Translations under genes and position numbers: made by a program | Notes under the pieces: generated by a model | The model's database searches: none | Told to the model about the DNA's origin: nothing | Seen by the model: only the letters and a program-made list of their open reading frames with translations | Virus record (IMG/VR): IMGVR_UViG_3300027608_000016 | Span: 32,001 to 96,000 of that record | Length of the DNA: 64,000 bases | Strand: one strand, 5' to 3' | Source of the DNA: a virus | Shown: in pieces, positions 31,447 to 64,000 of the stretch | Numbering within the stretch: the first letter of the stretch is position 1 | Layout: every line of letters starts with the position of its first letter

Positions 31447-32727
31447 TTAAAGTGAATATTTTTTCAGGACTTTTTGGAACATGTTTAAACTTTCAGGAAC
31501 AGTAACAGGAACTTCTGGAGTTGCATCTTTTGTTGCGAAATCGTTTATGAAATCTATTATCTCTTCAGAGGTTTTTTTGATTATGTCTTCATTTTTGTTG
31601 ATATGTTCTGCGTCTATTTTCCATAATACTAGATAGTTTTCTGTGGTGCCTGTAGGTAGACCGAACTCTTCCAATACTACATGTGCAACACCTTCTGCTT
31701 GTAACTCTTTAACCTGTTTAGAAAAGGTCTTTCTATCGTCTTTCCAGTGCAACATCTCATGGGCCAATTCGTGTATTAATGTGGCTATGTTAGTGTTTAT
31801 AAGGTTTATGCTTCCTCCTTTACTAACTCCTCTAGCACCTTCATGACCAACATTCCCAAGAGATACAGTAACGCCTTTAGTTTTCGCCAATTCCACCAAA
31901 GCATCATAAATTATTCTGGTTTTTTCATCTGCTTCTTCCTCTGAATACCATTTAATTTCGTCTGGTATTTTAACAGCTTTTCCGGGAATCTCTTCAGTTT
32001 GGCTTATGTCGAAAATTGGCCTTAATTTAAATCTAGTAGTTCTTAAATCTTTAATATTTTGAGGCTGAGAAGATGATGCTTCTGGTTCTTCTTCTTCATC
32101 TTTCTTCTTTCCAATAGGAACATATATGTAAATACCTTTTTCGCCAGCTTTAATTTTTCTCCCCAATTCTTTTTCCCATTTTCTCGCACCTTTAACCAAG
32201 GTCGCATTTTTATTTTGTATGAAAATCAAAATAGAATTATATAAAGAATATTTGTGGAATCTCTTCTTAAAATTTAAGAAATCTAAAACTTCTTTAGATT
32301 GTGCAGTAGATGTTACTTTATTTTTCAATTCATCTATGAACATGCTTATCCTGTCACTAAACCCTATATCGCCATATTCTTCCAACTCTTCAGCAGAATC
32401 TATTATGTCTTCTAAACCGTTTATTGTGTTTATAGCCTGTTTATATTTTGAAACGTTTAAATTAAAATCGTTCAAGTTAAATGTCTTTTTAGAAATCCAT
32501 TTTCTAATATTTGCTTTGTCGAAAATAAACAGGCCGGAATTTCTTATGAGGTCTAGATTTCGGAAAGTTTCATTTTGCCCCTTTGTGATGTCGGGATTGT
32601 CACTTGTCACTACGAAAACAAATTCATCATCACTAAGAGTTTTCTTTTTTAATATTAAATTTTCCCCTAGAAGCTCTTCGATATTTGTGAATACTCTTCC
32701 AAAAAGTATAGAATCAAATTTATTCAT
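31447..32727 (-). CDS. ArdC-like ssDNA-binding domain + zincin metallopeptidase
   Basis: FHKYSLYNSILI..Q...AT.V.G..KW..LGR.IK.GEKGI.I.VP, FDISQT, TLIHELAHE.LH, ELQAE.VA. Confidence 0.85.
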   Translation of the reverse strand: MNKFDSILFGRVFTNIEELLGENLILKKKTLSDDEFVFVVTSDNPDITKGQNETFRNLDLIRNSGLFIFDKANIRKWISKKTFNLNDFNLNVSKYKQAINTINGLEDIIDSAEELEEYGDIGFSDRISMFIDELKNKVTSTAQSKEVLDFLNFKKRFHKYSLYNSILIFIQNKNATLVKGARKWEKELGRKIKAGEKGIYIYVPIGKKKDEEEEPEASSSQPQNIKDLRTTRFKLRPIFDISQTEEIPGKAVKIPDEIKWYSEEEADEKTRIIYDALVELAKTKGVTVSLGNVGHEGARGVSKGGSINLINTNIATLIHELAHEMLHWKDDRKTFSKQVKELQAEGVAHVVLEEFGLPTGTTENYLVLWKIDAEHINKNEDIIKKTSEEIIDFINDFATKDATPEVPVTVPESLNMFQKVLKKYSL

Positions 32728-47488: not shown

Positions 47489-49234
47489 ATGAGAAACAAA
47501 GACGTATTATTAATAGAAAATATTTACATGAATAATGTGTTTTTGAGGGAATATCAAGAAAACGCAACTTTAAAGATGATAATGCACTTTAAGAAAACGT
47601 CAGAGCAACCTGATGCTATTATAAGAGATTATATATCTAAATTTGAAAAAATAAAGGACAAACTGCCAAAAAAAGACCCCTTTCAATATAAAACATTTCA
47701 AGAGTTTGAAAACGTTATAGATTCAAATACGAAAAATACAGTATCAAAAGCAGATATAGAAAATGTAAACGTAGACAATTTAAAGGTTTATGAAGATAAA
47801 AATATTATAGTTTATAAAGCTAGAAATGCTACAGAATCTATAAAATTGGGAAATAATCAATATTACTCCTTTTGCATTTCAAGAAAAAGCGGAAATTTAT
47901 ATTCAGGATATCGTTTAAGAGCAGAATCAACATTTTATTTCGTGAGATTTAAAAATAAATCCGATGAAAAAAATGGGGACAATATGTTTGTTGATCCTAG
48001 TCATTATATAGTCATAGACGCACAATCTAGTGGAAGGTATCAATGGACTTGGGCTGATAATGGAAGTCAAGGACATCCAACTAAAGATGTAACCGTAAAC
48101 GAAATCGTAAAAGATTTTCCAGAATTAAAAACTCCTTTTAATAATGAAATATTCGAAAACGATCCTTCAACTAAAGAAGAAAAACAAAAATTGAAAAAAT
48201 TTCAAAACTTGAACAACGATTTTAATGTAGAAGTTTTTAAAAGTTTAAATCCTAACGAAAAAGAAGAGTATATTAAAAGCGGATTTAAGGTTTCTTCACT
48301 ATCAATTTTAGACAAGGTTTTAAGAAATGAATATCTTGGTATGGGGCATATGTTATCAAATGATGACTTCAAATCTTTAAATGCTAATGAAAAAAATAGA
48401 TGGTTGAAATTCAGCATTCAGGTTTGCTATATTTCAGATATTGCTGAATTATACGTTTTGTCCAATGAACCAGTTCCAGAAGTTGTTTTAGACGTTATCA
48501 TAAAAGATAGTTCCACTTCTCATTATTATGCAGTAATTTTATTACACAGCAATAAACCAGTTCCAGAAAATATCGTGAACAGGTTTGCAAGTAATGGGAA
48601 TTACTATTCCCATTATGCAAGACTTTTAGTCGAAAAAGGTAAACCAGTTCCAGAAGTTATATTGAACAGTATTGTAAATGATCTTGTTGCGTCTGTTAGT
48701 TACGCGACAATTCTAATCCGAAACGATATACCAGTTCCAAAAATTGTAGTAAACAGTATTGCGAAAGATAGTGAACACTCTTATGAATATGCAAAGTTTT
48801 TAATTAAAAACGATAAACCAGTTCCAGAAATTATCGTGAACCGTATTGTAAGTGATAATAATGGTGAATGTCAATACTCTAATTATGAATACTCTTATCA
48901 GTATGCATTACTTATAATCCAGAAGAATAAACCAGTTCCAGAAATTATCATGAACTGTATTGCAGAGGATGGTGAAAGCTCTTATGAATATGCAATATTT
49001 TTAATTCTAAAAGATAAACCAGTTCCAGAAATTATCTTGAACAGTATTTTAGAGGATAGTTATATTTCTTTAGAATATGCAAAGTTTTTAATTGAAAACG
49101 ATAAACCAGTTCCAGAAATTATCTTGAACAGTATTGCAAAGGATAGTATACGCTCTAGGAAATATGCAGAGTTTTTAATTCAAAACAAAAAACCAGTTCC
49201 AGAAATCATTAAAGCTGCATCCATTAAACCTTAG
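47489..49234 (+). CDS. Late protein with leader, conserved N-domain and C-terminal 29-aa helical repeats
   Basis: TAAATA upstream; MRNKDVLLIENIY...LRE; SIKLG..FCIS..Y..Y...TFYF; KPVPE repeats. Confidence 0.75.
   Translation: MRNKDVLLIENIYMNNVFLREYQENATLKMIMHFKKTSEQPDAIIRDYISKFEKIKDKLPKKDPFQYKTFQEFENVIDSNTKNTVSKADIENVNVDNLKVYEDKNIIVYKARNATESIKLGNNQYYSFCISRKSGNLYSGYRLRAESTFYFVRFKNKSDEKNGDNMFVDPSHYIVIDAQSSGRYQWTWADNGSQGHPTKDVTVNEIVKDFPELKTPFNNEIFENDPSTKEEKQKLKKFQNLNNDFNVEVFKSLNPNEKEEYIKSGFKVSSLSILDKVLRNEYLGMGHMLSNDDFKSLNANEKNRWLKFSIQVCYISDIAELYVLSNEPVPEVVLDVIIKDSSTSHYYAVILLHSNKPVPENIVNRFASNGNYYSHYARLLVEKGKPVPEVILNSIVNDLVASVSYATILIRNDIPVPKIVVNSIAKDSEHSYEYAKFLIKNDKPVPEIIVNRIVSDNNGECQYSNYEYSYQYALLIIQKNKPVPEIIMNCIAEDGESSYEYAIFLILKDKPVPEIILNSILEDSYISLEYAKFLIENDKPVPEIILNSIAKDSIRSRKYAEFLIQNKKPVPEIIKAASIKP
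48470..49210 (+). repeat. 87-bp coding tandem repeat (9 PVP motifs, one 114-bp unit)
   Basis: ccagttcca at 48470, 48557, 48644, 48731, 48818, 48932, 49019, 49106, 49193. Confidence 0.9.
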
Positions 49235-59986: not shown

Positions 59987-60319
59987 ATGAAATTCGATAA
60001 CCTAGCCAATTCAATATTAGAACAGATTAAACCTACTGGAATCGAAGAGCATTCTGTTCGTTTAGTTACTGATGAAGGAGGAGACGAAACAGCAGAGGTA
60101 ATGGTGCATACAAACGTTGATGATGATATTATATTAAGAGCTTATGCTTACGCTGATGAAGCTGGTAAGTTCCCCAAAGATGCTATATTAGGAAAAACTA
60201 AGAATCCTCTTTTCGTAGAAGTCGCTATCTGGTATGTCAACGATCAAATAGAATGGGTCAGAGATCAGATAAGTGATAAACGTGCAGAGAATGTTCCTTT
60301 CAAAGTAACGTATTATTAG
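59987..60319 (+). CDS. Protein with leader
   Basis: MKFDNLANSILE. Confidence 0.6.
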   Translation: MKFDNLANSILEQIKPTGIEEHSVRLVTDEGGDETAEVMVHTNVDDDIILRAYAYADEAGKFPKDAILGKTKNPLFVEVAIWYVNDQIEWVRDQISDKRAENVPFKVTYY

Positions 60320-60378
60320 TTTTATCGCATAAAACTGGTTTATCGGATTTAACACATATCACCTACGCGAGAGCTTAT

Positions 60379-60766
60379 TCAATCGCCCCATAGGTTTAAG
60401 CATCTCTGCAAGGGTTTCAGCTTTCTCCATCTTCCTTTGCCACCCACTCCAAAACCATTTGGCCTCCAATGACTTAGGAGGATATACTCTTACGCGATCT
60501 GCATATTCTTATACAGTTAATCCTTCTGCTTCCTCTATAGATAGTTGTTCACTTCTTCCATCAATGTTTAGATATACTGAAATGCTATATCCCTCTTCTC
60601 TAGTAACAAGAGGTATTGATTTAATCTCTGCCCATTCTCTTTTAAGTTTCTCCCAAGTAAGATTCGCACGAACAATACAATTACTATCCCAACTACCCTC
60701 ACACCTTCCTCCTCAATGATCAGCAGAGTTTGGCTTATATGCAACTAAAGAATATGACGTATTCAT
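60379..60766 (-). pseudogene. Decayed early gene with in-frame stops
   Basis: Intact TTGACA-N16-TATTAT-N7-ATG; MNTSYSLVAYKPNSADH*GGRC...LTV*EYADRV... Confidence 0.55.
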
Positions 60767-60797
60767 ACAGCGAATAATACACTATATAAACCTTTTG

Positions 60798-61022
60798 TCA
60801 ATCCTTAAATTTAACCCCAAGAAATTCCCAATTCTTTCTCTTCAGAGGATTAAGAAGATTAGCTTTGAAAGTAGGACTTCTTTCAGCCATTAAAAGAACC
60901 TTTGTTTGAAAGTGATTGTCTTGTTCTTCTCTGAGAGATAACTCCAAATGTTTACAATATGCTTGCTTATCTTCAAGGAGTTTAATATAGTATTCAGGAC
61001 TGCAAGGAGGATTAAAATTCAT
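60798..61022 (-). CDS. Hypothetical protein
   Basis: ORF overlapping upstream stop. Confidence 0.45.
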   Translation of the reverse strand: MNFNPPCSPEYYIKLLEDKQAYCKHLELSLREEQDNHFQTKVLLMAERSPTFKANLLNPLKRKNWEFLGVKFKD

Positions 61023-61281
61023 AATTAATATCAGGGTGTAAGGTTAGCAATGTTTTCAAATCTTGCTTTAGCCGTTCCTTCTCGTTGGTGAGTTTTTCCT
61101 TCTCCACAAACCAACCATGTAGCTTATCCTCTAGCTCTTGGATTCTCTTTAACTGTGACTCGATTACCTCATTCCCAAACCCGAAAGGACGTTTTTGCTT
61201 TTTGATTTTCTCCAATTCAGCATTTACTTTGGAAAGTTCTTTGGAAAGTTCATCTGCGCTTAATGCGTTTTCAGTTATCAT
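61012..61281 (-). CDS. Hypothetical coiled-coil protein
   Basis: TTGACA-N17-TATTAT-N6-ATG. Confidence 0.6.
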   Translation of the reverse strand: MITENALSADELSKELSKVNAELEKIKKQKRPFGFGNEVIESQLKRIQELEDKLHGWFVEKEKLTNEKERLKQDLKTLLTLHPDINYEF

Positions 61282-61312
61282 TTGAACATAATACTACAAT
61301 GCATATTAAATG

Positions 61313-61669
61313 TCAATGTTTAATATTATACTTCTTGAAACGTGACAACGCTGCTATTAACTTCTTTAAGTCTGAATGATGACGATGATCACGCACAACA
61401 GGAGCAAACGCATCCAGTATCTCCTCCTCCTCCTTCGATGTAACGCCATACAGCACTTTAGTCTCTATCTCCCCTTCCACATCAGGACGCCACACATCCA
61501 TCTCACTGTATCTATCTCCTGTTCCCTGAAAGAAATCCAAGTCAGATTCATCTTGTCCTAGGTAATCAGGATTACTGCCGTAGTCCGTAGGATATGTAAC
61601 ACCCGTCAACGGATAGTCCAATTCAAACTCTTTTCTAGAACCTTTCAACTGGTCTATTACGATTAGTGA
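61313..61669 (-). CDS. Inorganic pyrophosphatase-like domain; no clean start, in frame after TAG of upstream gene
   Basis: IVID..KGS...YP...YP.DYG...D..D.D...G...ETKVL.G. Confidence 0.6.
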   Translation of the reverse strand, partial: SLIVIDQLKGSRKEFELDYPLTGVTYPTDYGSNPDYLGQDESDLDFFQGTGDRYSEMDVWRPDVEGEIETKVLYGVTSKEEEEILDAFAPVVRDHRHHSDLKKLIAALSRFKKYNIKH

Positions 61670-62071
61670 CTACATAAAGCCACTGAGAATATATCCAAAC
61701 CGTTTAGCATTGTCAACAGAATCCTTTGTGAATGAGACATATATAGGACTTATTCCTTTATCTCTCAATACTGCAAATCTATGCCTTCCATTGATAAACA
61801 TAACCTTGCCAGAATCATCCACGGATACTTCTGGCGATTCTAATGTTCCTCCTGAAGATTCTAATCCTTTATAGAATTTCTCAAATTTCTCTCTACGATC
61901 TGCAATACCGCCTTTTCCAAATGCAATATAGAAACCAACATCTTTACTCCAAGCAGCGTCAAATTTTTTTATGTCGACAGGAAGCAACACATCATTATTA
62001 TGTTCAGACCTTTGCGACCTCTTTGTTTGAACCGTTTCCATTATTAAATCATATAACTGCGAGAACTTCAT
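61670..62071 (-). CDS. ParB/Srx-like protein with leader
   Basis: P.V......F.NGRHRFAVLRD.G...I.V. Confidence 0.7.
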   Translation of the reverse strand: MKFSQLYDLIMETVQTKRSQRSEHNNDVLLPVDIKKFDAAWSKDVGFYIAFGKGGIADRREKFEKFYKGLESSGGTLESPEVSVDDSGKVMFINGRHRFAVLRDKGISPIYVSFTKDSVDNAKRFGYILSGFM

Positions 62072-62092
62072 ATATCTATTTAGTCTCAAACA
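61978..62092. repeat. 115-bp exact direct repeat, copy 1 (late promoter + leader codons)
   Basis: Identical to 62659-62773. Confidence 0.95.
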
Positions 62093-62180
62093 ACTGCAGA
62101 ATAACTAATTGTTTTTTATCGTCCTCATTGATTACCCCCATCATTTCTTTGATTCTATATATATTTTCCTGTAGGTTCAT
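62076..62180 (-). pseudogene. Truncated gene with a different leader type
   Basis: MNLQENIYRIKEMMGVINEDDKKQLVILQ then runs into the repeat and stops; TAATG coupling to upstream gene. Confidence 0.7.
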
Positions 62181-62752
62181 TATAAATCATTTTTTGTTAG
62201 AATCTTAATCTTAATAGGTTTGTTTGCCGCAACTGATGCATATAATCTTGTTCTACCGCCAACAACATGGTATTTGTCGTTATGTTTCAATACAACTGGT
62301 GATTCATATTCATTATTAACAATTCTATCATAATTCTTTACAGGTTTATACCCCCTGTTTCTGTTCTCACCCGAATCTCTAATATCCATATATTCCCCAT
62401 ACTCTTTTCTCGAATCATCCATTTTGGAAATTTGAAGCATTTTTGATAATAAACCCTTATCGTTTGATTTATTCTCTAAATTATGGAATGTTTTTATCTG
62501 TGTGTAATCCACCTCTTCTGTTGGTAATGAATCTATAATTGGTGTTAATCTTTCCACCGATTCTTTATCATTCTTATATCCAGCTTGTTTAACCACTGAT
62601 TTAATAACCTTATCGTCTTGACCAACCAACTCCCAAGCTTCTTCATCTGAGGATTCTTCAGGAAGCAACACATCATTATTATGTTCAGACCTTTGCGACC
62701 TCTTTGTTTGAACCGTTTCCATTATTAAATCATATAACTGCGAGAACTTCAT
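62180..62752 (-). CDS. ParB/Srx-like protein carrying the duplicated leader
   Basis: PVVL....YHVVGGRTRL.A; first 31 aa identical to 61670-62071. Confidence 0.7.
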   Translation of the reverse strand: MKFSQLYDLIMETVQTKRSQRSEHNNDVLLPEESSDEEAWELVGQDDKVIKSVVKQAGYKNDKESVERLTPIIDSLPTEEVDYTQIKTFHNLENKSNDKGLLSKMLQISKMDDSRKEYGEYMDIRDSGENRNRGYKPVKNYDRIVNNEYESPVVLKHNDKYHVVGGRTRLYASVAANKPIKIKILTKNDL

Positions 62753-62773
62753 ATATCTATTTAGTCTCAAACA
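62659..62773. repeat. 115-bp exact direct repeat, copy 2
   Basis: Identical to 61978-62092. Confidence 0.95.
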
Positions 62774-63051
62774 TCCCATCCTCCTAACTCTAACGCTTGA
62801 GGATCACCAAAGACTGCAATGGTTTGATATACACTTGGGGTTTTGTGGAGGAAGGATGGATATCTACGAGTATGCTTCTCTACCACCGCTGCAACTTCCT
62901 CCCCATGCTCAACCATACGTTTAGCGCACATAATAGCCTCTTCTCGCGCTTCAAAATGAAAAACCTCACTGGCATCCCCAAACTCATCAATAGAGCGGGT
63001 TTCATACTCTACGACCTTTATACTGACATTATCCTTTGATACTGTTTCCAT
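62767..63051 (-). CDS. Hypothetical protein
   Basis: TTGACA-N16-TTTAAT-N6-ATG. Confidence 0.6.
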   Translation of the reverse strand: METVSKDNVSIKVVEYETRSIDEFGDASEVFHFEAREEAIMCAKRMVEHGEEVAAVVEKHTRRYPSFLHKTPSVYQTIAVFGDPQALELGGWDV

Positions 63052-63279
63052 GTGACTATTAAAGCAGATATAAATGAACTGTCAAGAAATACTTAACAGT
63101 TCAATTCTACTCTGACTGCTGTTGGATACATTAAGTTCCTAACATGATCTAATAGTTCTATCAGTGAAATTAACACTCCACCAATCCTCACTTTGATGTT
63201 CATGTCCACTTTGATTGGCTATATGCAGGTAATCTCCCTCAAACCTAGTATTATAATTTCTCCTTCTATGGTAGTAACT

Positions 63280-63801
63280 TTAACCATAATAATCATTAGG
63301 AGATATGTTATTCTCTTGTAGTAATGTCAACAAATGGTTATACATCTTCAAAACCTTAGCATGTGCAGAAAGTTCAGCTTTTTTATTCTCCTCTGTATTT
63401 TTCTTGGGTAGTCTGCATATCGAATAATCAATCAATGCGTTTTCAAAGTTTATTAATGTTGTGGCATAAGGGAAAGACTTCTCGAAATCATTAAAGAAAA
63501 AGGATTCTGGTAGGTCTTCAACTTTTAATTGTGGTGAAATGCCTTCAAGTTTAAAGTGGTGATCATTCGCATCATTCGCATCATCAACCCATTGCGCCCA
63601 TACATGTCTCCAATCAGAATCATATGCAGCTTGTATTTCATGTCGAACACTCCACAAGAAACACGCTTTACAAACTTTCTGTATTGGAGTATGATGTTTT
63701 TGGCACTTCACTATTTTTTCTGGTGAAGGGAGGTCAGGCGTAAATCCCCAACTTTCATGTATCTTCTCAACTTTACGTTTAATATAATGACAAGTTTCCA
63801 T
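63280..63801 (-). CDS. Hypothetical protein
   Basis: 173-aa ORF. Confidence 0.5.
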   Translation of the reverse strand: METCHYIKRKVEKIHESWGFTPDLPSPEKIVKCQKHHTPIQKVCKACFLWSVRHEIQAAYDSDWRHVWAQWVDDANDANDHHFKLEGISPQLKVEDLPESFFFNDFEKSFPYATTLINFENALIDYSICRLPKKNTEENKKAELSAHAKVLKMYNHLLTLLQENNISPNDYYG

Positions 63802-64000
63802 ATTGCTTATATTATCTGGAAAGTTTTGCCGTCGATTGATTGCTTTAACTTACCAGCCAGTTCTCTACACTTGGCAATAAGGAACTCTGTCTCTTTACGG
63901 TGATGATCTTCTAACTCTTGAAATGTAGCATTATCTGGAAGTCTTTTTACTTTAATCCAAGAGTAGTTATCCTCTTCTATAATCGCATCTAATTCGTCCA

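Follow-up and report, generated by a model that had tools for sequence, protein, structure and literature searches.

The window analysed here, the whole 64,000-nt stretch at positions 32,001 to 96,000 of IMG/VR record IMGVR_UViG_3300027608_000016, comes from an uncultured freshwater giant phage and contains a 115-nt direct repeat (R), each copy of which forms the start of a gene. Comparison of these two genes, A and B, with their metagenomic relatives shows, as judged from the sequences, that a recent recombination fused the promoter, the leader and the first ~19 residues of mature B to a gene body from an array of genes with another class of leader, the MNLQE type. We regard the locus as a well-documented natural instance of a mechanism that specialists expect, and not as a new principle; by analogy with phage T4, it would be a natural snapshot of the re-labelling of probably capsid-loaded proteins.

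In the reading direction, the locus comprises a 94-amino-acid (aa) gene, the first repeat copy (R1), the remainder of gene A, the stub of a further gene (X'), the second repeat copy (R2) and the remainder of gene B, all genes being on the minus strand. The first-pass annotation had reported two identical 115-bp stretches comprising a TAAATA box, an ATG and 31 codons, followed by complete divergence. A repeat search recovered both copies with 100% identity and with this content, to which one extra nucleotide after the last codon is to be added; the part upstream of the ATG amounts to 21 nt in all. Both proteins begin with MKFSQLYDLIMETVQTKRSQRSEHNNDVLLP and then differ. The start-to-start spacing of the copies is 681 nt (3 x 227), and genes A and B therefore share one frame. 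Among the 14 families of direct repeats of at least 30 nt in the window, R1 and R2 are the sole pair with 100% identity, and an exact match of 115 nt in 64 kb cannot be due to chance. The same search found no inverted repeats at 60000-64000.

Origin of the repeat and of the gene A body

With regard to the repeat, several observations point to gene B as its owner. A search with B among 1.84 billion representatives gave 859 matches at E <=0.001, many of them inside proteins of 1000-4000 aa, and the alignments often begin at B residues 13-30. When 19 sequences are aligned, B residues ~17-37 correspond to the family consensus LxxRxxxxxDVLVxVxVxKFD, which places the final five codons of R (D-V-L-L-P) centrally in a conserved block. 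AlphaFold modelled B with a predicted local distance difference test (pLDDT) score of 89; this model scores at least 82 from residue 11 onwards and exhibits a strand at residues 28-32, which spans the end of the repeat. In the model of the chimeric protein A (pLDDT 86), residues 17-29 score below 50. Taken together, the family alignment, the strand in B and the low-scoring residues in A indicate that R is the native 5' end of B and that the copy before A is derived. The first-pass annotation had described a duplication of the resident promoter and tag. The repeat is indeed resident, but the copied stretch also includes ~15-19 residues of B's own domain, as judged from the family alignment and the predicted strand.

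The segment of 566 bp between the copies was previously described as having a leader style of its own, and it does come from a gene array of another leader class. A search with the A body gave 58 relatives at E <=0.01, of which 26 were examined. The close relatives are proteins of 176 aa which exhibit an MNLQE-type leader ending in I-K-E or I-N-E, directly followed by SSDEEAW. This native leader precedes A in 13 of the 16 metagenome loci, where A lies among TAATG-coupled genes that all have the same leader type. Depending on the contig, seven different MNLQE-led genes occur after A (arrays on L020-L031), which indicates that the arrays are reshuffled at the leaders. The 31-aa N-terminus encoded by R could also have been ancestral to the homologues of the insert; among the 26 relatives examined, it is present only in P0003, a near-identical chimera. 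The native leader of the ParB-like gene A is itself of the MNLQE type, and thus of the same class as that of the stub.

The closest relative of the insert is found on contig L027, which is 99.3% identical to window positions 62658-62083 over 578 bp. On this contig, A has its native MNLQE-type leader and sits in an MNLQE-led array, and its body is identical to that of the window at 476 of 476 positions. The event had been called recent on the basis of the identical repeat copies, and the identity of the A body with its native-leader form now also indicates that the fusion is young. On L028, where A likewise has its native leader, the body matches at 470/476 positions. The X' stub is identical to that of L027 over all 89 aligned bases, with two additional indels, which fall in an AT run and in a G run. 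The donor-type ends occur beside the chimera in the same samples, the L027-type sequence past the stub being present in four of four sequencing runs and the native leader before the A body in three of four. The donor proposed in the first-pass annotation has thus been found in part: A exists with its own native leader, but the gene beginning MNLQEN and reaching DDKKQLV was nowhere found at full length, since in none of the metagenome loci does it extend past the stub.

The insert had further been attributed to an operon piece from a different large phage. The origin from an array gene holds, whereas a different phage is no more than a possible source. L027 itself carries a repeat-like promoter and start 27 nt past the stub. 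Searches of tblastn type with the window genes other than A gave no match on the array contigs, so that the donors may or may not be relatives of the window phage. No near-identical DNA for 61000-64000 was found in GenBank phages, the native A protein had no tblastn match in phages, and neither A nor B had a match in GTDB genome contigs. The relatives of A in IMG/VR are at most 55% identical, are often embedded in large proteins and are uninformative on the junctions. For B, tblastn against phages gave only 36% matches, in nine Nodularia phage records, and IMG/VR contains B on one contig (L002); the 94-aa gene was not found in the IMG/VR search.

The two edges of the repeat differ in their type of join. 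At the 3' edge, the resident sequence stops at the first base of codon 32, and the donor sequence resumes within the Lys codon of I-K-E, from its second base on. No base is shared at this join, which is blunt, and the in-frame fusion gives L-L-P-E-E-S-S. At the 5' edge, TGTTT occurs alike in the resident sequence (where the 94-aa gene ends), in the product and in the donor-type contigs, with a match of 9/10 over TGTTTNAGAC, and this join is located in a 5-nt microhomology. The gene beginning MNLQEN had been thought to be cut off at the repeat junction. It is already a stub in L027 and L033, where its stop lies one codon later, and the window junction therefore did not create the stub. Codon 31 of A (window 62660-62662), the last codon of R and one base short of the join, encodes Pro, His or Leu among near-identical proteins. 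The fusion point accordingly reads L-P-E in the window, L-H-E in P0003 and L-L-E in P0251, all of which keep L-x-E; by analogy with known cleavage sites, this is suggestive of a cleavage site, and only suggestive.

Table 1. Features of the fusion locus in the window
Feature	Position	Strand	Description
Resident 94-aa gene	62767-63051	-	Open reading frame; last codons and stop within the first 7 nt of R1
Repeat copy R1	62659-62773	-	TAAATA 62758-62763, ATG 62750-62752, 31 codons and 1 nt; the derived copy, fused to the A body; identical in L032, L033 and L034
Chimeric gene A, 190 aa	62180-62752	-	Residues 1-31 encoded by R, followed by a ParB/Srx-like body
A body (residues 32-190), from an MNLQE-led gene	62183-62658	-	First base is the second base of the Lys codon in the native leader end I-K-E
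X' stub, 34-aa open reading frame	62076-62180	-	TAATG-coupled to A; MNLQE-type leader and ~10 codons; ends inside R2; remnant of the next array gene
Repeat copy R2	61978-62092	-	Original 5' end of gene B; TAAATA 62077-62082, ATG 62069-62071
Gene B, 133 aa	61670-62071	-	Leader-tagged, predicted ParB/Srx-superfamily protein, Osa/PFIN-like

Independent assemblies and variant forms of the locus

The arrangement is not a misassembly of the window contig alone. A JGI contig of 12.6 kb (L034) exhibits the same order as the window, with the 94-aa gene, R, A, X', R and B. Across the 796 positions of R1, the A body, X' and R2, it shows 0 differences from the window, whereas the compared flanking segments differ at 5/278, 1/308, 9/670 and 19/459 positions. 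A further contig, L002 from IMG/VR, begins within the tail of X' and continues through R into B. Logan contigs (k=31) were also used, from four runs representing four studies; the run that is possibly the source of the record was excluded. The junctions were left for confirmation in other data by the first-pass annotation, and each of the four was recovered in all four Logan runs, with 30 nt inside the repeat, as well as in L034. A single Logan contig of 626 nt crosses the whole insert from repeat to repeat. As contigs of this k-mer size show junctions and not the order of parts, the order rests on the window and L034.

In three of the Logan runs, the repeat forms a separate unitig of the full 115 nt, and in the fourth run one of 89 nt; its depth is ~2 to 3.5x that of the flanks. 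The depth of the insert equals that of the flanks in three of the four runs. In the remaining run (X4), the insert has a depth of 4.9, compared with 9.8 and 13.4 for the flanks, contig depths being too coarse to serve as evidence for a subpopulation with an empty site.

Several variant forms of the locus are observed. With regard to relatives with a single repeat copy, which had been anticipated, protein P0239 begins with MGCLRLNRY, which corresponds to the in-frame reading of the 94-aa gene's end, and continues with R and then the B body, as expected of an empty site; this match is limited to one protein from a single Logan contig of 1823 bp. On L033 (4480-5942), which shares the four-G run of L027, the stub is followed by a perfect hairpin and convergent genes with leaders of the MKF type, and 463 bp of the tail match L033:1851-2310 at 92%. 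This contig may be a recombinant or a chimera. L032 has different DNA upstream of the chimeric gene, together with a partial leader that has diverged (MGFSQLYDLIME), at 1988-2138.

An additional partial copy of R, 55 nt long and comprising the promoter and a 12-codon leader up to I-M-E, precedes the full repeat and B on both L034 (4568-4737) and L002 (19-188). It is absent from three of the four Logan runs, in which the 115-nt unitig is unbroken. The length of this copy suggests a join made by the assembler. It stops at the same point as the partial leader of L032, just before the full repeat, and in view of this parallel it may be real.

Two further features of these contigs were recorded. 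A segment of ~1.6 kb, present on both L002 (1626-3219) and L034 (6175-7768), is lacking from the window at 60358-60541. On L032, four consecutive small genes (495-1480) each exhibit a near-identical upstream motif with a TATAAT-type box directly before the ATG, and these motifs look like repeated early-type regulatory cassettes.

Explanations for the duplicated 5' end

We favour, with moderate confidence, a course in which a fragment of an array gene was joined into the resident order of 94-aa gene, R and B, with duplication of R. During a mixed infection, a fragment of ~570 bp would enter this order, comprising the A body, beginning 5 nt short of the leader's end, and the stub of the array gene that follows it. 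On the right, the join would be made at the 5-nt microhomology TGTTT at the 5' edge of the repeat, and on the left it would be blunt and located past codon 31 of B. With the resident left breakpoint located 3' of the right one, a resident stretch of 110-115 bp would be present on both sides of the fragment. Gene A would lose its operon-coupled expression and its MNLQE tag, and would gain a late promoter of its own and the tag class of the other tagged genes of the window. By analogy with the capsid-targeting sequence (CTS) and gp21 of T4, the chimera would enter the prohead as cargo and be cleaved after I-M-E (residue 12). A possible second cut after L-P-E (residue 32) would leave a product one residue longer than native mature A.

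Several points weigh against this course. The MNLQE array may be located elsewhere in the same genome, no donor with a full-length X gene is present among the metagenome loci, and the reading of the leader as a CTS is by analogy only. On L027, the 14-nt string of R from the box to the ATG occurs 27 nt past the stub, with GGG for AAG, and has leader remnants and another body behind it; stub and R may therefore have been neighbours before the fusion. An empty site such as that of P0239 could arise secondarily, by recombination between R1 and R2, and L033 carries the 94-aa gene, R, A and X' followed by other DNA, with no B. A local replacement of the leader is accordingly to be considered, which we hold to be possible but distinctly less probable. 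The ancestor would already have carried A with its native leader, the stub, R and B, and a second R would have been placed before the A body and the 94-aa gene brought adjacent to it, by one illegitimate crossover or by a local duplication followed by a deletion, empty sites being later deletions between R1 and R2. The stub of L027 has the same breakpoint, with the R-like TAAATA box, ATG and leader remnants following after 27 nt. TGTT is native to both the end of the stub and the end of the 94-aa gene, so that either 5' junction could be the new one, and recombination between direct repeats of 115 bp occurs readily in T4-type phages. Nevertheless, at least two events are needed, because the MNLQE array upstream of A must also be removed. 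On L027, the R-like element has diverged strongly (a 22-nt indel, GGG for AAG, and deletions), and the gene downstream of it is not B. The identity of A and the stub despite this divergence is easier to reconcile with an exchange of the A-X' segment than with descent of the entire locus from a common ancestor.

Two other explanations appear very improbable. If A and B were two old neighbouring paralogues of the ParB/Srx fold, gene conversion could have kept their 5' ends identical, and this would account for both bodies being of the ParB/Srx type, with a weak C-terminal alignment (E 4.1), and for the invariance of R across strains in which the flanks vary. This explanation is close to refuted: most of the 26 A homologues examined are MNLQE-led, with the shared N-terminus confined to the near-identical chimera, the 3' part of R is B-family sequence and ends within a strand of B, and the A body is identical to the native-leader form over 476/476 positions. 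It is equally improbable that the genome consists of the 94-aa gene, R and B, with R-A-X' being a 681-bp circle, or belonging to another genome, and threaded wrongly by the assemblers. Mini-circles of PeSL cassettes do exist in T4-type phages, as described in PMC2839356, the k=31 contigs give junctions without order, and the insert depth in run X4 is below that of both flanks. However, the window and L034, two independent longer assemblies, thread the parts alike, L002 runs from the stub through R into B, and the chimeric gene follows the 94-aa gene in both L033 and L034. Moreover, the insert is as deep as the flanks in three of the four runs, and the repeat is about twice as deep as the flanks or more.

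Two candidates of another kind were rejected. For a transposable element with a short target-site duplication, the duplication is too long at 110-115 bp, there are no inverted repeats, and the insert of 566 bp encodes only the A body and the 34-aa stub. For a PeSL cassette, no inverted repeat is present at 60000-64000, and R is mostly coding and has a TAAATA box.

Leaders, folds and known systems

The late promoter of T4 is TATAAATA, and the TAAATA box of R is, by analogy, a putative late promoter. In the window, 28 of the 130 open reading frames (ORFs) of at least 60 aa have TAAATA within 20 nt before the ATG, compared with 2.0 expected; both R copies exhibit the box. Many of these ORFs start with MKF-type leaders that contain [ILVM]-x-E. 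The leader of R, which is also of the MKF type, exhibits L-I-M-E at residues 9-12, and the leaders of the stub and of native A end in I-N-E or I-K-E. Phages disarm host defences by injecting proteins that they have loaded into the capsid; the loading tag of T4 comprises ten residues, and the tagged genes vary greatly between relatives. The internal proteins of T4 are loaded by means of the CTS and trimmed after Glu, according to passages of PMC5694885 and PMC3012670. The rule of [LI]-x-E at the leader end of T4-type cargo is derived from the Alt sites ITE-6 and LTE-619 (as reported in part of PMC5694885), and the leader of R conforms to it. The parallel with CTS and gp21 suggests that the chimera would likewise be loaded into the capsid and trimmed by a prohead protease.

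At the level of the fold, the earlier label of A as ParB-like holds. A VIA-align comparison of the A model with 48,161 chains gave entries that belong to the ParB/Srx superfamily at ranks 1-9, all with Z <8. These include the sulfiredoxin Srx 6ky4 (Z 6.4, root-mean-square deviation 3.5, 79 aligned residues), KorB (Z 5.1), PadC and Osa. The best Foldseek E-value for A is only 0.038, and there is no Pfam ParBc match; a GGRTR motif is invariant in 44 sequences of the A family. The B model places gene B in the same superfamily. Its top two Foldseek matches are 4ovb and 4o7k, both structures of the plasmid fertility inhibitor Osa (E 0.031 and 0.047, probability 0.99, TMq 0.52-0.53), E-values so weak that the predicted Osa-like fold is to be read as a fold class only. 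In the B family, a G-R-H-R motif is invariant in 19 sequences, and eight of the 19 members match Pfam PFIN (PF22162; best E 5e-6), whereas B itself (P0002) has no such match at E <=0.01. We know of no nuclease or NTPase activity in either the A or the B family. ParB/Srx domains are known parts of phage-packaged and polyvalent proteins (Iyer et al. 2017, in part of PMC5512222). A and B resemble these proteins and plasmid Osa in their predicted fold and in having an invariant Arg motif (PMC5512222, 4ovb, 4o7k), but are single-domain and leader-tagged, unlike the ParB/Srx domains of packaged and polyvalent proteins (PMC5512222).

Domains of the A type also occur fused to other modules, including a DGHHR ParB domain and a Cys-rich KRDRCL module (P0031, P0049, P0050 and P0055; L009, L010, L014 and L015), and within ORFs of 1000-1500 aa on other phage contigs.

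Among known systems, the internal protein (Ip) loci of T-even phages are the most similar. At these variable loci, the genes have a conserved capsid-targeting sequence in common (Repoila et al. 1994, as cited in PMC3012670, PMC2839356 and PMC12373910). As in the present case, unrelated and fast-changing small genes are placed under one short N-terminal tag. In the relevant passages of PMC3012670, PMC2839356 and PMC12373910, the T-even tag loads the protein into the capsid and is removed after Glu, and the loci are recombination hot spots with many variants. In contrast, the tag class has been swapped here, by an illegitimate join that carries along part of the domain of another protein, and the case is known from sequence alone. 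There is also no exchange within a shared tag in this case, and the tagged genes are far more numerous.

The resemblance to PeSL cassettes is in the repeated promoter module that flanks a small accessory gene cassette in a hyperplastic region, and in both cases the direct repeats could excise the cassette as a circle (both according to passages of PMC2839356). The PeSL described there consists of a sigma-70-type early promoter and a stem-loop terminator and is non-coding, whereas R has a late-type box, is coding, exhibits no inverted repeat and occurs twice in the window. Microhomologies of 6-10 bp are used for recombination by T4 (Srikant et al. 2022, in part of PMC9391042). Segmental amplification and deletion in T4 resemble the present case in their joins at 5-10 nt microhomologies and in the promoter within the duplicated segment. 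That case, as described in the same source (PMC9391042), is nevertheless a tandem amplification of resident DNA under laboratory selection, whereas one of the joins here is blunt and the flanked DNA is of other origin. In the giant phage SPN3US, the processed head proteins gp53 and gp54 resemble A and B in having identical N-termini, of 15 residues, and exhibit a propeptide with protease motifs. These two proteins are paralogous throughout according to passages of PMC5694885, whereas the bodies of A and B belong to different families and their identity reaches the promoter.

Literature searches found no published case of duplication or recombination of a capsid-targeting leader, which is not proof of absence. 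The acquisition of a tag by new proteins in nature is mostly inferred from end products. What is new at this locus is the replacement of the tag class through an illegitimate in-frame join, together with the finding of donor-type forms alongside recipient ones in the same samples. Since donor-type, recipient and possibly empty-site forms are present in the same lake metagenomes and the moved body has no substitutions, the breakpoints can be read directly. A more far-reaching proposal, which we regard as tentative and rather doubtful, is that leader classes are phage-specific, non-interchangeable addresses. Cargo of an MNLQE phage would then work in an MKF phage only once re-addressed, and this locus would be that step; the alleles of codon 31 would tune a new protease site that releases near-native cargo, and the 681-bp unit could be excised or move as a cassette. 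If tag classes prove phage-specific, the locus would provide a concrete and testable model of cargo re-addressing, as well as natural design rules for loading foreign proteins into T4-type capsids.

With regard to the genes around the repeat, the cluster of the 94-aa protein comprises 19 members, with the C-termini GGWDV, GGWDVE, GGWEVD and GKWDVDC, and the 94-aa protein itself has no Pfam or PHROG match. Among the variants of B, P0230 and P0236 end in ESGGWDVD, which is the C-terminal motif of the 94-aa protein, and this tail hints at a further recombination module at the ends of genes. The cluster listing of B was compiled leaving out the rows of the neighbouring 111-aa protein. The PHROG matches in the window correspond to a tailed-phage replication region, with an SbcD-like nuclease subunit, a helicase, a primase, a DNA polymerase and an endonuclease. 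Elsewhere in the window, tandem coding repeats of 87 bp are present at 48465-49192, inside a gene of 581 aa (47489-49234).

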